Origin: Escherichia coli
GTDB lineage: Bacteria > Pseudomonadota > Gammaproteobacteria > Enterobacterales > Enterobacteriaceae
DNA: 64,000 bases
Assembly: GCF_044324785.1 (NCBI RefSeq)
Contig: NZ_CP172127.1
Strand: one strand, 5' to 3'
Positions 14,009 to 58,658 of this stretch are shown one piece after another (the first letter of the stretch is position 1; every line of letters begins with the position of its first letter). A model generated the notes under the pieces. It was given only the letters and a program-made list of their open reading frames with translations, was not told where the DNA came from and did no database searches. The translations under genes and the position numbers were made by a program.

Positions 14009-14836
14009 TCTATGGCGCTACTGGCACCATAGTACAAAAAATGAGCGATGGTGCCACTGACACCACGGTATAAAAAATGAGCGATGGTGACGCTGGCACC
14101 ATAGTACAAAAAATAAGCGATGGTGCCACTGGCACCATAGTACAAAAAATGAGCGATGGTGCCACTGGCACCACGGTATAAAAAATGAGCGATGGTGCCA
14201 CTGGCACCACGGTACAAAAAATAAGCGATGGTGCCACTGGCACCACGGTATAAAAAATGAGCGATGGTGCCACTGGCACCACGGTACAAAAAATAAGCGA
14301 TGGTGCCACTGGCACCACGGTACAAAAAATAAGCGATGGTGCCACTGGCACCACGGTACAAAAAACGAACGATGGTGCCACTGGCACCATAGTACAAAAA
14401 ATAAGCGATGGTGCCACTGGCACCACGGTACAAAAAATAAGCGATGGTGCCACTGGCACCACGGTACAAAAAACGAACGATGGTGCCACTGGCACCATAG
14501 TACAAAAAATAAGCGATGGTGCCACTGGCACCATAGTACAAAAAATAAGCGATGGTGCCACTGGCACCACGGTACAAAAAATAAGCGATGGTGCCACTGG
14601 CACCATAGTACAAAAAATGAGCGATGGTGCCACTGGCACCACGGTATAAAAAATGAGCGATGGTGCCACTGGCACCACGGTACAAAAAATAAGCGATGGT
14701 GCCACTGGCACCATAGTACAAAAAATGAGCGATGGTGCCACTGGCACCACGGTATAAAAAATGAGCGATGGTGACGCTGGCACCATAGTACAAAAAATAA
14801 GCGATGGTGCCACTGGCACCATAGTATAAAAACGAA
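14009..14836. repeat. Tandem array of ~22-23 copies of a 36-bp unit, each containing a 17-19-bp palindrome (A)TGGTGCCACTGGCACCA(T) plus an A-rich spacer
   Basis: Directly visible periodicity of 36 bp across ~830 bp with minor unit variants (cggtac/tagtac, ataa/atga/acgaa, gtgacgctg). Confidence 0.95.
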
Positions 14837-17940: not shown

Positions 17941-18270
17941 TGGCAGGGCTAACTTGTCGCTCCGGCGACCACCAATGTTCCATAGTGGCCTGTGAGGAAC
18001 GCCTTCGGGTGGCCCATGTCGCTTCAGCGACCACCAATGTTCCATGTGGCCTGTGAGGAACGCCTTCGGGTGGCCCACGTCGCTCCGGCGACCACCAATG
18101 CTTCATCTGACCTGTGAGGAGCGCCTTCGGGTGGTCAGTTTTACACCTCCTGAGCCTGAAAGGAGCTGTGCGTACTGAAGGGATATATTCCCGGAAGTAC
18201 GGGCAAATCTGCACACCTTTGAGAGCAGATGTCACTGCGGTTTTCCGTGATGATGAAGGCTTTTTTTACT
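17941..18270 (+). repeat. Structured ~320-bp element, copy 1 of 3 (three ~61-bp tandem units plus hairpin-rich tail)
   Basis: Unit gtcgctccggcgaccaccaatgttccatgtggcctgtgaggaacgccttcgggtggcccac x3, then tail with CTCCT/AGGAG, GTACT/AGTAC, ATCTGC/GCAGAT stems; near-identical at 46163 and 48465. Confidence 0.85.
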
Positions 18271-46162: not shown

Positions 46163-46478
46163 AACTGTCGCTTCGGCGACCACCAATGTTCCATGAGGCC
46201 TGTGAGGAACGCCTTCGGGTGGCCCATGTCGCTCCGGCGACCACCAATGTTCCATGTGGCCTGTGAGGAACGCCTTCGGGTGGCCCACGTCGCTCCGGCG
46301 ACCACCAATGCTCCATCTGACCAGTGAGGAGCGCCTTCGGGTGGTCAGTTTTACACCTCCGTAGCCTGAAAGGAGCTGTGCGTGCTGATGGGATATGTTT
46401 CCGGAAGTACGGGTAAATCTGCACACCTTTGCGAGCAGATGTCACCACGGTTTACGTGATGATGAAGGCATTCCGGAT
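46163..46478 (+). repeat. Structured ~320-bp element, copy 2 of 3
   Basis: Same three-unit plus hairpin-tail organisation as 17941-18270, with a few substitutions. Confidence 0.85.
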
Positions 46479-48464: not shown

Positions 48465-48775
48465 ACTTGTCGCTTCGGCGACCACCAATGTTCCATGTGG
48501 CCTGTGAGGAACGCCTTCGGGTGGCCCATGTCGCTCCGGCGACCACCAATGTTCCATGTGGCCTGTGAGGAACGCCTTCGGGTGGCCCACGTCGCTCCGG
48601 CGACCACCAATGCTTCATCTGACCTGTGAGGAGCGCCTTCGGGTGGTCAGTTTTACACCTCCTGAGCCTGAAAGGAGCTGTGCGTACTGAAGGGATATGT
48701 TTCCGGAAGTACGGGCAAATCTGCACACCTTTGAGAGCAGATGTCACTGCGGTTTTCCGTGATGATGAAGGCTTT
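48465..48775 (+). repeat. Structured ~320-bp element, copy 3 of 3
   Basis: Near-identical to copy 1. Confidence 0.85.
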
Positions 48776-50261: not shown

Positions 50262-50771
50262 ATGAAAACGAAAACTTCTGCACCTGCTGTATATGTTGGT
50301 ACCTGGGCTAAATACAACAATGGCAGCATAGAAGGATGCTGGTTTAATGATTTAACCGTTTTTGAAACTGAAAGCGATTTTTTATCTGCGGCCCGTAAGT
50401 TTCATCAGGATGAAAAAGATCCTGAATTTATGTACCAGGATTATGAAAACTTTCCTTCGGGAATGGCTTCAGAATATGGTTTCAACTGGGCTTATGTTGA
50501 AGGTTATCGTCTTGCCCGTGAAGAAGGCTGTGAAGATGCATGGTATGCATGGGTTTCTAATACCGGTGATACCTGTTTCGAACAGTTCAGGGAGGCGTGG
50601 CTTGGTGGTCCTTATGACAGTGAACTCGAGTTCGCCGCGCAGTACGTGGATGAATGCGGTTTTCTGTCAGAGGTACCTGATACTGTTGCACGCTATTTTG
50701 ATTATGAGGCTTTTGCGCGCGATTTGTTCATGGAACTGGATTTTGTCGACGGACACGTTTTCCATCGGTAA
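50262..50771 (+). CDS. ardA: Antirestriction protein ArdA
   Basis: PAVYVGTWAKYNNGSIEGCWF...HQDEKDPEFMYQDYENFP and acidic composition match ArdA by recall. Confidence 0.8.
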   Translation: MKTKTSAPAVYVGTWAKYNNGSIEGCWFNDLTVFETESDFLSAARKFHQDEKDPEFMYQDYENFPSGMASEYGFNWAYVEGYRLAREEGCEDAWYAWVSNTGDTCFEQFREAWLGGPYDSELEFAAQYVDECGFLSEVPDTVARYFDYEAFARDLFMELDFVDGHVFHR

Positions 50772-53412: not shown

Positions 53413-56328
53413 TTACTGAGTCAGTTTTTTTATCAGGTCGTGAATTTTATCACCTGAAAACTGGGTCATGAAAGTTATCTTTATGGATTTACTGATTTGT
53501 TCGAAGAGTTTCTGTGCATGTTTTATTTTATCGCGTTCTTCATGTCTGAGTTCACGTTTGCCATCAACATTTTTGGTTTCAATAATAAGGTTCAGATAAT
53601 CACCCTTTGACGTGTTTACAACATAAGCGAAGTCAGGGGAGTAAGTGTATCCTCCCGCTACAGGAATTTTTATTGAATTTTTGGGGATCTTTGTGAAGAC
53701 AATGACTGACCTGACCTCACCCTCTGTCATATTGAGTTTTTCAAGTTCTGAATCATAAAATACTTCTTCAAAAAGATAAGAGTCCAGTGGAGGGCTTGTA
53801 TTATCCTGTAAAACGCCAAGATCACTTGACAATACATCAGCAAGATAACCGCCGTCTGCATTGGTGAATTTCGTGGGATGGACAGTTCCTGATATTACAT
53901 TATACCCAAGGCTGAATTTACTGAACGAGTTATTAAGCAAATACTTGCTGAAACCAGATTTAATTTTTCTGATTGTCTGAATGTTAAGGTATTCAGTTAT
54001 ATTTATGATGTCTTTTATATCACAAAAAACCTTATGCATGGTGTCATGTTTGACAAAAATAGTCTGTGATAATTTATCAAGGAATTCACGATAGCTCATT
54101 GTGTTTATTTTGTGAAAATTATCCTCATCAACACTGAGAATGCTTTTCGACATTGCCGTATCATTATGGATATAAATTCTTTCAATACGAGTATGAGCAC
54201 CGGATTTGGTAAATCTGTCTGCTTCTTCCAGCATAAACGCTCTGAAAAGGGATAAAAACTCACGTTCACTTTTTATTTTATACTCAATCACGACCTTTTG
54301 ATTGATCAAGTCCCATAGTTCTTTCAGCTCACTGAACTTACCAACACGCATTTTAGTGCGTCTTTTTCCATCAGAGGCTTTTTTTATTTTGCCTGGTTTC
54401 ACTCCTGCAGGAAATGCTGCCGGATATCTGGCTTTTAAGCGGCTATAGGCATCTGAATCTTTGAAGTTATCATTATCATCAATGATCTCATCACCAAAAA
54501 TTTCATTCAAGAGTGTTCTGGAGGAAAGCTCCGGATATTGAGACAGGATTTTATCCTTAAGCTCCTGAGTAAACTTACCTGGAACAGTCTCTTTGAAAGA
54601 ACTATCGTTGATCTCTTTGACAAGAGAATCGACAAAATCTTTTTCTGTAAAATCAACATAATAGTTGAGGGTAAAATTGCGGTCTTTCACACGACACATG
54701 TATTCATTCACCGGAAGACGTAAACCACGCCCTACTTCCTGAAGTTTAGATGTGGTGCTACCGCTCGAACGGAGCTTACAAATCTGAAAGACATTTGGGT
54801 TATCCCATCCCTCACGCAACGTCCATTTAGAGAAAATGAAACGGCGAGGATTTTCTAAAGACAATAGAAGCTCTTTATCATGAAGGATTTCGTTGATTTC
54901 CTGCTCAATTTTATCATCTTTATCACTATTATCTTTTGAAAAATAACCACCATGAACAGAAGATATATCCTTAACAGTTTTTTCAAGGTAGTTTCTGTAA
55001 AACTCATCTTTTTCTGTTTTTAACAGTTCATTTGCTTCTGCCAAAACGTATTCTTCGAACTTAGTTTTCAGGCTTCCTGCAATATCATTACCATCACGAT
55101 AGCCTTCAATGTCATCAATGAAGAAAAGAGTAAGAGGTTTTATGCGTGGCCTTTGTGTCAGATACTCTTTTTCTAACTTAAAGTGTTCTTTGACAGCTTT
55201 ACGTATCATGTTATCAGCAAGTGTCTGATCGTAAGAATAGGGGTTTATCGAACTACCAATTTTTAGCTCAATACCATTACTCAACACTGCTGTATTCTTA
55301 TTTAAAGCATCAAGAGTTAAATCATGGATCGCACTATGCGTCTTAGATAGTGATTCACCTTTGGCTAACTTAAAAATTTTTTTATTATTATTTTCGTTCA
55401 GTTCAAATGTAGCTTCTTTTCCGTCAGATTTGACCAACTTGAGGTTGGCATTACCATCACCAACTATATCCTCAATGTATGCATCAATACCTTTAACAAG
55501 ATCTTCATTGAAGGCATCTACGGCTGTAAGACGATAAACTAAGTTCTTATAGCCTTCACTAAAGGTTGCACCATAGCGGATGATATATTGGGCATTAAAT
55601 TTTTGAATATGTTCCCATGTCTTTTTACCAGTAGGAAATTTATGAGGCTCATCAATGATAATGAATGGTTTTATCGCACTAAGTGCAGAAAATGGGGTAT
55701 CAAACTGATTATTAAGCAAGCCAACATCATAAGTGTCAGTTAAAGACTTAGAGTTAATCATCCCTGAATTGATCACAAGAATGTGTATATATTTCTTATT
55801 GAAATTACTTGCTTCAACAAAATCATGGATAGCTTGAGGTATATACGATTTTGTATTTTTACCCGAACGTTTCTGACTTTCAACAACGTAAGTCTTTAGT
55901 TCACGCTCGTAATCATCTCGAAAGTGTTCTTTTATAGCATCGCTTTTTAAAAAGTTAACGGTTCCGGCTTTGATCGATAGGGTAGGAACAATGATGATAA
56001 ACTTGTTAATACCAAATGATTTGTTCAGGTCAAAAATTGTTTTGGTGTAAGTATAAGTTTTACCTGTACCTGTCTCCATAGAAACATCAATTACGTTGCT
56101 TTTAGCATCGTAATTATCTTTTGAGTGCTCAATACCATTGAACTCCTGAACATTTTTTATGTTGTTGTAGTATTGTTGTTCAGATAGATTCAGTTCTGGA
56201 TTAGCTAACAGGCGAATTGCAACATGATCCGTCTGATGAGGTATGGCGGATACAAAGACATTCATTACCGAATCAACGCCAGCCTTTTGATGAGGTAAAT
56301 TTTTTTCGAATGTGAACCCTTTAGACAT
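53413..56328 (-). CDS. res: Type III restriction enzyme Res subunit
   Basis: 971 aa; helicase Walker A METGTGKTYT, DEAH-like IIIDEPH, motif VI QEVGRGLRL, C-terminal PD-(D/E)xK; low GC; immediately downstream of mod. Confidence 0.85.
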   Translation of the reverse strand: MSKGFTFEKNLPHQKAGVDSVMNVFVSAIPHQTDHVAIRLLANPELNLSEQQYYNNIKNVQEFNGIEHSKDNYDAKSNVIDVSMETGTGKTYTYTKTIFDLNKSFGINKFIIIVPTLSIKAGTVNFLKSDAIKEHFRDDYERELKTYVVESQKRSGKNTKSYIPQAIHDFVEASNFNKKYIHILVINSGMINSKSLTDTYDVGLLNNQFDTPFSALSAIKPFIIIDEPHKFPTGKKTWEHIQKFNAQYIIRYGATFSEGYKNLVYRLTAVDAFNEDLVKGIDAYIEDIVGDGNANLKLVKSDGKEATFELNENNNKKIFKLAKGESLSKTHSAIHDLTLDALNKNTAVLSNGIELKIGSSINPYSYDQTLADNMIRKAVKEHFKLEKEYLTQRPRIKPLTLFFIDDIEGYRDGNDIAGSLKTKFEEYVLAEANELLKTEKDEFYRNYLEKTVKDISSVHGGYFSKDNSDKDDKIEQEINEILHDKELLLSLENPRRFIFSKWTLREGWDNPNVFQICKLRSSGSTTSKLQEVGRGLRLPVNEYMCRVKDRNFTLNYYVDFTEKDFVDSLVKEINDSSFKETVPGKFTQELKDKILSQYPELSSRTLLNEIFGDEIIDDNDNFKDSDAYSRLKARYPAAFPAGVKPGKIKKASDGKRRTKMRVGKFSELKELWDLINQKVVIEYKIKSEREFLSLFRAFMLEEADRFTKSGAHTRIERIYIHNDTAMSKSILSVDEDNFHKINTMSYREFLDKLSQTIFVKHDTMHKVFCDIKDIINITEYLNIQTIRKIKSGFSKYLLNNSFSKFSLGYNVISGTVHPTKFTNADGGYLADVLSSDLGVLQDNTSPPLDSYLFEEVFYDSELEKLNMTEGEVRSVIVFTKIPKNSIKIPVAGGYTYSPDFAYVVNTSKGDYLNLIIETKNVDGKRELRHEERDKIKHAQKLFEQISKSIKITFMTQFSGDKIHDLIKKLTQ

Positions 56329-56330
56329 GA

Positions 56331-58367
56331 TTAGTTCCTTACCACCAAATCTAAATCAATAGATTTTTTATTAGCATAACTTTTTAGTGCTTCATTGAGT
56401 TCCATCTGTTTCGCACTTTCGAAGTTGCTGCCATAAAATACAACTTTGTTAGGGGCAAAGTCTTTGTCTGCATCCAGCTTTTGAAGTAAAGCTTTCAAAG
56501 CCTCACTTGTGAAATTAGGCGCAATTAGATATAGCCGACCATCGCACAAGTGTGCTTTGTAGCCATTAAGGTCAATATCTTCAATTGGTGTTGTTAGCAA
56601 GCTGCCATCATACACGCACCATGTCGTCAATAGAGTGTCATACTGCTCTGGTGTCAATACAGCATCGTCAAAGAAACTAAGATTAGAAAGCGTAAGTTCA
56701 GACTCATCTTTCACTCGAAAATCATGAACTGTTTCAAATATTTTAAATCCCAAATCTCCATTATAATTAGGATTATCTTTTTTCAGCTTTTTTCCTGCCT
56801 TAATAATTCTGTCTTTTGTTATATTGAAGATGGATTTATACCCTTCTTTATAGGCTTGTTTCTTTTTATCTGTTTCTTCATCTAATTGAACACAGATGAA
56901 GTTTCTTTTCCTGCCGTCTTCAATATTTAACTCCAGAATACCATGAGCTGTAGTTCCAGAGCCAGCAAAAAAGTCAAGATAAATGTCTTTATCTTCGGTT
57001 TTTACTGAACCAAATAGTGTTTTTATTAAACTTGTTGGCTTCGGGTAGGAGAAATATCCTTTCCCACCAAAAAGATTTTCAACCTCAACACCACCATCAC
57101 TTTTAGTTGAAATAATTGATCTTAGTAAAAACTCTTCAACTTCATCTAAAAATTTAACCGAACTGGGTTGGGTGTTTTCTGTACTGGCAAACCAAATTCC
57201 ACCACAAATAACGCTACCATCATGTAGTTTTTTGATATCTGCATACTTTCCATCTATTCTTTTTGCAATATGATTAAAAGTGCCTTCTTTCCAACGCCAG
57301 CCTCTGTCTGGGATTTTGACAGGGTTATTAGTCAAAGGGTGCAATACTTCATACGTGGGTCCAAATGAATCTGCATTAGGCCAGCTCATATTAATTTTAC
57401 CCCATGGCCTATAATCTTCGTTCAAACAGTTGTAAAGAGTAATTCCACGATCATATCCGTTGGAGCTGTAGAATTTTTTGAGTTGCTGCTCTGCTTTATC
57501 TAATGGCACCTTCTCCTTTTTTAACTTTTCAATAAACTGATATACATCATCAATACCATCTTTCCGCATTAAAAATTCTTTACTTATTTCGTTATTCTTC
57601 GCATAAGCAAGGATGTACTCATGGATATTACCAATACCCTTATCATTTTTAGGGATACGTTTATTCCATACAATATTTTCTATGAAATTTGCTTCGCCAA
57701 AAATTTCATCACAAATAGTTTTAAGTTGATTTAATTCATTTTCGTCAATCGAAATAAATATCACACCATCTTCACGTAGAAGCTCACGAGCAATATATAA
57801 ACGAGGATAAATGAACGTTAACCATGCGCTATGGCTGCTTGAACCATTCGTGGTAAATTCAAGTATACGTTTAGCCTCATCAAGATCGATACCTGCCAGA
57901 TCAGAAAGCTGTTCAGGTGTAAACTTGCGATCATCGTTATAGGCGAATCCATCCTTACCTGTATTGTATGGTGGATCAATGTAAATCATCTTCACCTTTT
58001 CAGAGTAAGCATTAACCATATGCTTCAATACTTCGAGGTTATCCCCTTTGATTAACAGATTCTGACTGTTTTTGTTCTCTTCACGTTGGTTATGGTCTTT
58101 ATCTTCGGAGAGTAATGTCTTCGGCGGCAAGTTAGCTAACAGACGGGCATAGGATTTACCAAGCCAGTTCAGGCTGTATGATTCTTTGGAGAGTTCAACA
58201 TCCGATGATTTGACGATTTCAAGCAATTTTTCCTGAATGAACGCTCCATTTTTATCAAAACACTGTGGAAAGTTAGCCTTTAAAATCGCAAGCTGTTTAC
58301 TGTTTGTGGTTTCAGTTTCAGAGAAAAGAGTTTCTTTTTTCAGTTGAAATTGGGGTTGTGTATTCAT
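56331..58367 (-). CDS. mod: Type III N6-adenine DNA methyltransferase Mod subunit
   Basis: Motif IV DPPY (MIYIDPPYNTG) preceding motif I FFAGSGTT (beta-class order); SD GGAGGTG 5 nt before ATG 58367; mod-res order. Confidence 0.85.
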   Translation of the reverse strand: MNTQPQFQLKKETLFSETETTNSKQLAILKANFPQCFDKNGAFIQEKLLEIVKSSDVELSKESYSLNWLGKSYARLLANLPPKTLLSEDKDHNQREENKNSQNLLIKGDNLEVLKHMVNAYSEKVKMIYIDPPYNTGKDGFAYNDDRKFTPEQLSDLAGIDLDEAKRILEFTTNGSSSHSAWLTFIYPRLYIARELLREDGVIFISIDENELNQLKTICDEIFGEANFIENIVWNKRIPKNDKGIGNIHEYILAYAKNNEISKEFLMRKDGIDDVYQFIEKLKKEKVPLDKAEQQLKKFYSSNGYDRGITLYNCLNEDYRPWGKINMSWPNADSFGPTYEVLHPLTNNPVKIPDRGWRWKEGTFNHIAKRIDGKYADIKKLHDGSVICGGIWFASTENTQPSSVKFLDEVEEFLLRSIISTKSDGGVEVENLFGGKGYFSYPKPTSLIKTLFGSVKTEDKDIYLDFFAGSGTTAHGILELNIEDGRKRNFICVQLDEETDKKKQAYKEGYKSIFNITKDRIIKAGKKLKKDNPNYNGDLGFKIFETVHDFRVKDESELTLSNLSFFDDAVLTPEQYDTLLTTWCVYDGSLLTTPIEDIDLNGYKAHLCDGRLYLIAPNFTSEALKALLQKLDADKDFAPNKVVFYGSNFESAKQMELNEALKSYANKKSIDLDLVVRN

Positions 58368-58425
58368 AACGCACCTCCAGAATGCACGGAGGTACTTGAC
58401 GCGGAATTTTTATACAGGCATATTG

Positions 58426-58575
58426 TTGCGTTGCGTTGCGTTGCGTTGCGTTGCGTTGCGTTGCGTTGCGTTGCGTTGCGTTGCGTTGCGTTGCGTTGCG
58501 TTGCGTTGCGTTGCGTTGCGTTGCGTTGCGTTGCGTTGCGTTGCGTTGCGTTGCGTTGCGTTGCGTTGCGTTGCG
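58426..58575. repeat. Perfect pentanucleotide repeat (TTGCG)x30; (CGCAA)x30 on the mod-sense strand
   Basis: 150 bp of uninterrupted 5-nt periodicity, 58 bp upstream of mod ATG, preceded on the sense strand by ATG-AAA with SD GAGG. Confidence 0.95.
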
Positions 58576-58658
58576 TTTCATTAAATAGCCTCGAGTTTCG
58601 TTTTACAGGTTTTTATTCTAACCTGAATTGTTGATTTTCTGAATAAGTCTGACGTCAG

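Follow-up and report, generated by a model that had tools for sequence, protein, structure and literature searches.

Does a simple-sequence repeat that lies outside a restriction-modification gene control that gene and, if so, by what means? The question is raised by a 64,000-nucleotide stretch of Escherichia coli DNA (contig NZ_CP172127.1 of assembly GCF_044324785.1; hereafter the window), in which a Type III methyltransferase gene, mod, and the restriction gene that follows it, res, lie downstream of a tract of 30 CGCAA units. The tract occupies the beginning of a short open reading frame (ORF), the leader, and the number of units (n) sets where that frame ends relative to the mod start codon. 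We propose that the tract serves as a contingency locus and, through translation of this short leader, gates the mod-res pair, which is borne on an integrative and conjugative element (ICE). We give this reading a probability of roughly 55%; it appears to be the best explanation available, and comparison with related loci lends it real support.

The tract and its leader reading frame

Tandem Repeats Finder reported one perfect array of period 5 at positions 58425-58577 (30.6 copies, 100% matches), the sole array of its kind in the window, and by a regular-expression search it consists of exactly 30 units of CGCAA, read on the minus strand, the sense strand of mod (Table 1). A perfect pentanucleotide array of 150 nucleotides (nt) cannot have arisen by chance. 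Contingency loci are recognized by a long, uninterrupted tandem repeat of short units adjoining a gene, and the 30 perfect units form such a repeat. In every related locus an element resembling a Shine-Dalgarno (SD) sequence and an ATG directly adjoin the 5' end of the tract, and equivalent leader ORFs are called 'hypothetical protein' by RefSeq in loci L002, L004, L009, L010 and L011. The distance from the tract to the mod ATG is 58 nt, and mod has an SD sequence of its own in the arrangement GGAGG-TGCGTT-ATG.

Leader frames were simulated for n = 24 to 36. In a classical phasevarion one repeat frame is in frame with Mod; here the leader stops fall at -45, +1 and +47 relative to the mod start, depending on n modulo 3 (n%3). 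An in-frame fusion of leader and Mod was considered and is ruled out by the presence of stops in three of three frames over the whole simulated range. A protein search with the leader peptide returned seven short ORFs only, none of them fused to a methyltransferase. A preliminary description of this DNA, made from its letters, had claimed a perfect 30-unit tract 58 bp 5' of the mod ATG, a leader ATG-AAA with GAGG 7 nt before it, and a stop-free repeat giving three distinct leader ends; the array searches, the coordinates and the frame simulation, respectively, confirm these claims. The stop that overlaps the mod start codon, forming ATGA, recurs in E. coli strain 48, in modO of Moraxella catarrhalis, in Pasteurella sp. 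(locus L160) and in a methyltransferase gene of Spirabiliibacterium.

Between the tract and mod a hairpin is predicted whose 3' arm contains the mod SD sequence, GGAGG (58374-58378). The isolated hairpin is computed at -12.5 kcal/mol and its allelic variants at -13.9 to -15.6 kcal/mol, and a hairpin that pairs GGAGG is also predicted in the diverged locus of strain 48. A search of Rfam over positions 58250-58900 gave no match. In each of the two E. coli lineages, that of the window (Table 1) and that of strain 48, which has TTAACA-16-TAAAAT at the equivalent position, the promoter-like sites that score best are located upstream of the ribosome-binding site (RBS) of the leader; all are consensus matches only. 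If the site in the window is used, the tract lies inside the mod transcript.

On our reading, transcription would begin upstream of the leader RBS and yield an mRNA carrying GAGG-N7-AUG-AAA-(CGCAA)n. Replication slippage would add or remove 5-nt units and shift the leader frame, which in turn would set the position at which ribosomes stop relative to the mod start. Where n%3 = 1, they would stop at the TAA at -45, before the GGAGG hairpin, and mod, left to unaided initiation, is predicted to be OFF or low. Where n%3 = 2, the hairpin would be opened and ribosomes stopping at ATGA would reinitiate on mod, which is predicted to be ON. Where n%3 = 0, as in the window, ribosomes would cross the mod start and stop 47 nt inside the gene; the predicted state is intermediate or uncertain, because the structure would be opened but the start occluded and reinitiation remote. 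In OFF states the untranslated mod mRNA may also become scarcer through polarity or decay. Type III Res needs Mod for DNA recognition, and res begins 2 nt after mod, so the whole restriction barrier would switch together. Leader translation, the ON frame of the E. coli mod and the relevance of the hairpin are what we infer.

Three further observations concern the surroundings of the leader. A promoter-like sequence of antisense orientation, TTGACG-17-CATATT, lies directly 3' of the tract and points into it (58396-58424, plus strand; 3547-3519 of locus L013). It would yield a (UUGCG)n RNA directed toward a divergent 337-aa ORF at 58859-59872; strain 48 has the same two hexamers at the same 17-nt spacing, with a different spacer sequence. 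Between the promoter region of the leader and this divergent ORF there is a remnant of an IS3-family transposase (~58653-58808). Pairing of the repeat RNA with the mod RBS (UGCGUU with AACGCA) was also considered and was rejected; it is present in the window and broken in the L007 and L010 alleles.

Table 1. Features of the mod-res locus and its leader (positions in the window; n, number of CGCAA units; MFE, minimum free energy)
Feature	Position	Strand	Basis or remark
(CGCAA)x30 hypermutable tract	58426..58575	-	translates as (RNATQ)n in all frames, stop-free
Leader start, GAGG-CTATTTA-ATG-AAA	58579..58592	-	GAGG 58592-58589, 7 nt, ATG 58581-58579
Leader ORF at n = 30, 87 aa	58318..58581	-	ORF list and frame simulation
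TAA at -45, leader stop if n%3 = 1	58410..58412	-	14 nt ahead of the predicted hairpin
TGA overlapping mod ATG (ATGA), leader stop if n%3 = 2	58364..58366	-	frame simulation
TGA at +47 in mod, leader stop if n%3 = 0 (state of the window)	58318..58320	-	frame simulation
Predicted hairpin GUACCUCCG-UGCAUUC-UGGAGGUGC	58371..58395	-	MFE and centroid structures
Promoter-like TTCAGA-17-TAGAAT	58615..58643	-	consensus scan only; upstream of leader RBS
mod, DNA methyltransferase and specificity subunit of the Type III system, 678 aa	56331..58367	-	ORF and 4ZCF_A
res, Type III restriction endonuclease subunit, 971 aa	53413..56328	-	ORF and NCBIfam NF012027

Tract variation in E. coli and counterparts in other bacteria

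The leader was found in 12 of 5,426 complete E. coli genomes, and its region is absent from the 72,556 plasmids searched. Eleven carriers have flanks 96-100% identical to those of the window; the twelfth, strain 48, is ~77% identical. The close carriers, from poultry, human STEC (E. coli that make Shiga toxin) and commensal isolates, have 47, 25, 29, 33, 25, 13, 19, 7, 34, 37 and 37 units, the 29-unit allele being interrupted (20 + CGAAA + 8) and the 7-unit strain having an IS1 insertion between tract and mod as well. Tract length is not invariant in these related genomes. With 7 to 47 units amid near-identical flanks, the tract is a real hypermutable locus. Seven of the twelve alleles (n = 7, 13, 19, 25, 25, 37 and 37) leave a remainder of 1 on division by 6, a pattern that is not significant after removal of duplicates. 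A metagenome scan for the hairpin sequence yielded a single contig; its 3 units most likely reflect a collapsed assembly, and it is uninformative.

In strain 48, isolated from deer, the operon occupies a different chromosomal site and the leader begins GAGG-N5-ATG-ACA-(CGCAA)~21. Its spacer is 6 nt longer, which leaves the frame relations intact, with stops at -51, at ATGA and at +47. What is conserved between the two lineages is the design and not only the sequence. The leader is also joined to at least two Mod specificities, the Mod proteins of L010 and L011 being 28% identical in the central recognition region. In these two loci the sequence upstream of the leader is different and includes topoisomerase and autotransporter fragments, which indicates that the module of leader, mod and res has moved or been rearranged. 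LF82-like strains encode a Mod that is 97% identical overall and 100% identical in the recognition region behind an unrelated, repeat-free 5' region; nature thus supplies, for the methylation motif, a control that does not switch. In E. coli LF82 itself (locus L012, 2620-3012) a 120-aa ORF ends 12 nt before the mod ATG, beside tRNA-Leu and a decayed integrase gene.

A scan of species-representative genomes for at least five CGCAA units and a tblastn search with Mod picked out two systems for which functional data have been published. M. catarrhalis modO has a (CAACG)n tract upstream of its ORF (PMC6241649, PMC7302503), and its authors hypothesized transcriptional control (PMC6241649). The tract varies within strain 23246, and relative modO mRNA was 1.0, 20.7 and 1.75 at n = 9, 10 and 11 (PMC7302503). 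CAACG is the CGCAA unit in another rotation, it is on the sense strand of mod as in the window, and the tract stands 43 nt before an EcoP15I-family mod whose product is 45% identical to the Mod of the window. An SD sequence and ATG abut the tract on its 5' side, the mod start has the ATGA overlap, the leader is not fusable, and tract length differs between strains. The window shares with modO a sense-strand CAACG/CGCAA tract that lies outside the ORF and tens of nt (here 58 nt) before the mod ATG, and in both systems one conserved 5' region is followed by different target-recognition domain (TRD) alleles, of which there are several in modO. The two differ in that modO is a chromosomal Moraxella locus rather than part of an ICE in E. 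coli, that two of three modO leader frames stop before the SD sequence where only one of three does so in the window, and that modO lacks an upstream anti-SD hairpin, its SD sequence being predicted to pair with codons 2-4. The leader ORF was not noted by the modO authors.

In Bibersteinia trehalosi, (CGCAA)n is located 43 bp upstream of M.Btr192II, with a role that was described as unclear in the paper (PMC4996451). Methylation of ACATC is present in strain 192, with 15 copies, and absent from strains 188 (17 copies) and 189 (14 copies), and these three strains have no other difference within 1 kb (PMC4996451). A further strain, 190, has 15 copies, a different TRD and extra single-nucleotide polymorphisms and is silent in its native host (PMC4996451). 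As in the window, a leader ORF with SD sequence and ATG and a (CGCAA)n tract, here 42 nt away, precede a Type III mod (Mod 44% identical), and here methylomes tie copy number to activity; the differences are that the coupling frame ends at +11 instead of ATGA and that three strains have an imperfect terminal unit, TGCAA. The active strain 192 (CP003745; 14 perfect units plus TGCAA, 15 in all) has a 46-aa leader, a gene-finder call at 1373-1513 of locus L139, that extends over the GGAGG and the ATG of mod before ending at +11. In the silent strain 188 (CP006954; 16 + 1 = 17 units) a 38-aa leader stops at a TAA at -24, and the 14 units of strain 189, a count taken from the paper, put its leader in the same frame. 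The reconstructed frames fit a frame rule: methylase activity goes with a leader that overlaps the start of mod, and the two strains with an upstream stop are silent.

The survey was then widened beyond mod genes. Among the first 120 species-representative loci listed with at least five CGCAA units, we considered those with n of at least 9 that lie upstream of an ORF of at least 150 aa and are not fusable to it; seven were found among the matches listed. These are the B. trehalosi mod, M. catarrhalis modO, homologous solitary methyltransferases of Spirabiliibacterium falconis and a Pasteurellaceae isolate, a 760-aa NPPY enzyme of Haemophilus parainfluenzae, a lipoprotein of a spirochaete metagenome-assembled genome, and a 363-aa protein without family match in Brachyspira catarrhinii. 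At all seven loci exactly one frame ends between -7 and +11 of the downstream ATG (with ATGA in two), and the remaining two frames stop within ~20 nt of the tract. Shuffling of the spacers gave a chance of 0.19-0.80 per locus and a product of ~0.004 over the seven. A similar pattern is seen in the two E. coli lineages, in a spirochaete locus of 5 units and in a ModO-like gene of Pasteurella with CTTGC units.

The Pasteurella locus (L160, 516-606) reads TAGGAG-N8-ATG-(CTTGC)3, with two frames that stop early and one that forms ATGA on the mod start. In Avibacterium paragallinarum (locus L161, near 601) the mod ATG overlaps, again as ATGA, the stop codon of a repeat-free 47-aa upstream ORF. ATGA coupling at mod starts seems to be common in the mod family. 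In Rodentibacter and in Acinetobacter calcoaceticus, RBS-ATG-(CGCAA)n is the true N-terminus of in-frame methyltransferases, so that the ATG of the cassette is able to serve as a start codon. We tentatively suggest, at a little under even odds, that RBS-ATG-(CGCAA)n and its sister units such as CTTGC form a portable switch cassette, used in Proteobacteria and spirochaetes either as an in-frame fusion or, in a manner so far unrecognized, as a separate coupling leader ORF.

Leader translation weighed against other explanations

The tract might instead act without any translation of the leader, as DNA or as an untranslated 5' region (5'-UTR), through helical phasing, distance, or the structure or processing of the RNA. 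Such an explanation agrees with the hypothesis of the modO authors and accounts for the published modO data; the effect was measured at the mRNA level, and the low, high and low values at 9, 10 and 11 units fit a helical period of two units (10 bp), although mRNA differences are also expected as a secondary result of altered translation. By the same helical-face model 17 units should behave like 15, and in B. trehalosi, where the sequences are otherwise identical, 15 units are active and 17 on the same helical face are silent. Natural E. coli tracts span 35-235 bp, which is hard to square with an optimum of spacing, and the odd n found in 10 of 12 E. coli alleles, which such a period might favor, is not significant once duplicates are removed. 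A TATAAA between the tract and the mod SD sequence of the window could serve as a promoter element downstream of the tract; it failed the promoter scan and is not conserved in the leader of strain 48.

Repeats that act as RNA are known. The Haemophilus influenzae hmw1A gene has a transcribed 5'-UTR (ATCTTTC)n with an RNase III hairpin (PMC12721329), and both it and the (AGAT)n of M. catarrhalis uspA2 resemble the window in having a repeat that precedes the coding sequence and is probably part of the transcript. Their output is graded and length-dependent through RNA structure, in contrast to the all-or-none response to single-unit changes in the systems related to the window, and (CGCAA)n RNA, with no U and only 20% G, cannot pair with itself. 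In favor of action without leader translation, M. catarrhalis has a perfect TTGACA followed, after 17 nt, by a -10-like hexamer overlapping the ATG of the leader, an arrangement seen by eye in several Pasteurellaceae loci as well. The same TTGACA stands 8-10 nt before an SD-like AAGGA (L145, 1065-1093; equivalents in L074, L128, L033 and L160), and it may be a promoter, a relic of a shared mobile cassette, or both. Action of the tract without leader translation would leave unexplained the constant SD sequence and ATG at the tract and the one frame that always reaches the downstream start. We regard it as rather unlikely.

A different possibility is that the leader frame acts on transcription elongation, by an attenuation-like process or Rho polarity, and not on initiation at mod. 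The model for this, and a precedent for gating by a leader frame in general, is pil1 of Streptococcus gallolyticus, a translation-dependent switch with GCAGA repeats in a leader peptide. Of its three frames, one ends 39 bp short of a hairpin (low) and the other two run into the hairpin (high) (PMC3894217). The window shares with pil1 a pentanucleotide repeat within a leader ORF, translated in pil1 and recognizable in the window from its own SD sequence and start codon, and the topology of one short and two long frames, one stopping before the hairpin and two beyond it. The repeat unit, phylum and cargo differ, and the pil1 hairpin is a transcription terminator whose output is transcription of a pilus operon. 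The hairpin of the window is not an intrinsic terminator; it holds the mod SD sequence, has no U-run and is followed by GUUAUGAAU, no terminator-like site was found between the tract and mod, and hairpins with a U-run are likewise absent from this interval in the M. catarrhalis and B. trehalosi loci. The 20-fold change in modO mRNA and the C-rich, G-poor composition of the tract RNA would suit such control; against this, the short frame leaves only 45 nt untranslated, little room for Rho to load. An SD sequence within the hairpin, together with an ATGA frame, points instead to translational coupling in the window, and control of elongation seems to us improbable.

The tract could also be a hypermutable relic, with mod expressed constitutively from its own GGAGG-N6-ATG and a promoter independent of the tract. 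The strength of that SD sequence, the LF82-like strains, whose Mod has an identical target-recognition region and no tract, and an E. coli frame distribution without significant skew are what one would expect of a relic. The homologous modO and M.Btr192II nevertheless switch with n, the mod SD sequence of the window is predicted to be base-paired, and a perfect 30-unit array whose design is kept across diverged flanks and different TRD alleles argues for maintenance. We judge a relic slightly less probable still than control of elongation.

Several results weigh against gating by leader translation itself. Strain 190 of B. trehalosi, with 15 units in the overlap frame, is unmethylated, an exception to the frame and helical models alike. 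The silent B. trehalosi frame stops just 22 nt before the ATG, and with a stop so near, melting of a hairpin alone is insufficient as a mechanism. Pairing of the mod SD sequence does not exceed that of composition-matched shuffles (p = 0.21 in the window, p = 0.06 for 10 loci combined, z = -0.89 for the region), so that the SD hairpin is plausible, not demonstrated. If the TTGACA and -10 pair of M. catarrhalis were the only promoter, the leader ATG would not be transcribed. The twelve E. coli alleles number 8, 2 and 2 for n%3 = 1, 2 and 0, a skew that is not significant with duplicate values removed. Lastly, the flanks of ten M. catarrhalis loci place the leader stop right after the tract at n = 10, the high-mRNA state, and at ATGA at n = 11. 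Agreement of the modO data with the leader model is possible only if fragment sizing was off by one unit; the amplicon calculated from primers and flanks is 110 + 5n, and the sizes in the paper follow 112 + 5n. In favor of leader gating, on the other hand, a 'locked' allele of M. catarrhalis that has just 3 units is in the ATGA frame.

The claim of the preliminary description that the leader frame gates mod is therefore favored by the comparative loci and the B. trehalosi methylomes, while the ON frame and the translation of the leader are parts of it that we only infer. Its statement that repeats of phase-variable Type III genes elsewhere sit inside the mod ORF is incomplete, as the tracts of modO and M.Btr192II lie upstream. 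The switch is also less unusual than it was made out to be, given that modO and M.Btr192II share the arrangement and that the leader-peptide switch of pil1 is established.

The mod-res operon, its ICE and its significance

The Mod protein matches the EcoP15I Mod structure 4ZCF_A over its full length (E = 2e-242; residues 9-678 of the query aligned with residues 1-644 of the chain), and Res scores 1072 bits against the NCBIfam equivalog model NF012027, 'type III restriction-modification system endonuclease', whose cut-off is 564; the RefSeq annotation of identical loci agrees with the res call. The two genes are on the same strand and meet at TAA-TC-ATG. By these matches mod-res is identified as an EcoP15I-family Type III restriction-modification pair. 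The window is 99.6-99.9% colinear with an annotated chromosomal island, an ICE, of E. coli APEC E19035, whose annotations include an integrase, TraD, TraG, a conjugative ATPase, a dozen TIGR037xx ICE proteins, ParA/ParB and an SPI-7-type DnaB; judged from this colinearity, the carrier of the operon is an SPI-7-type ICE of E. coli. The GC content of mod-res is 35.5%, against 46-62% in the rest of the window. The identity of the operon, its location on an ICE and its lower GC content relative to the ICE backbone had all been anticipated in the preliminary description.

Other features of the element were noted in passing. A 169-aa ORF at 50262-50771 (plus strand), ~2.6 kb from res, is the ArdA antirestriction protein according to the colinear E19035 record, so that restriction and anti-restriction genes are present together on the ICE. 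Amid the transfer genes there is another gene annotated 'restriction endonuclease' (L155, 28718-29308). A hypothetical ICE ORF contains 22.8 copies of a 36-bp unit with 91% matches (14012-14832), and the E19035 island, otherwise 99.9% identical, has one unit fewer, which makes this array a second length-variable locus. A 61-bp unit (TGTCGCTCCGGCGACC...) is present in ~2.9 copies at each of three places in the ICE (17955-18134, 46166-46344 and 48468-48646).

Classical Type III mod genes (modA, modB, modD, modH, modM and M.Eco131I) likewise combine a 5' repeat with exchangeable TRDs and turn ON and OFF by slippage, and an identical (CGCAA)n is in frame in the mod of A. calcoaceticus; they differ from the window in that its repeat ORF is never fused to Mod at any repeat number. 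E. coli is usually held to be poor in repeat-driven contingency loci. The STEC gene M.Eco131I, with CAGCGAC[n] inside its ORF, was reported as 'the first' phase-variable E. coli methyltransferase, and the accompanying Type III survey covered only repeats within annotated mod ORFs (PMC5909438). A repeat outside the mod ORF is missed by a survey restricted in this way, and, if the leader-ORF reading is right, surveys confined to repeats in annotated ORFs undercount phase-variable genes.

The system of the window joins a class already described in Moraxella and Bibersteinia, where its mechanism was left unexplained. What is new is that the class is present in E. coli and on an ICE; a single frame-based rule for the whole class may be new as well. 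The window thus adds a second, different repeat-bearing Type III system to E. coli, on a self-transmissible element whose hosts include avian-pathogenic, Shiga toxin-producing and commensal strains. If the tract switches, clonal subpopulations would differ in the uptake of phages and plasmids and in adenine methylation across the genome, a trait that would travel with the ICE. If the leader-ORF reading is true, it would provide a concrete mechanism for the 'upstream repeat' genes modO and M.Btr192II. A portable cassette, if it exists, would explain the whole class of phase-variable genes with upstream repeats (modO, M.Btr192II and others), which has been assumed to be transcriptional, and would give E. 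coli a three-state restriction barrier (OFF, coupled ON and read-over) on an ICE.

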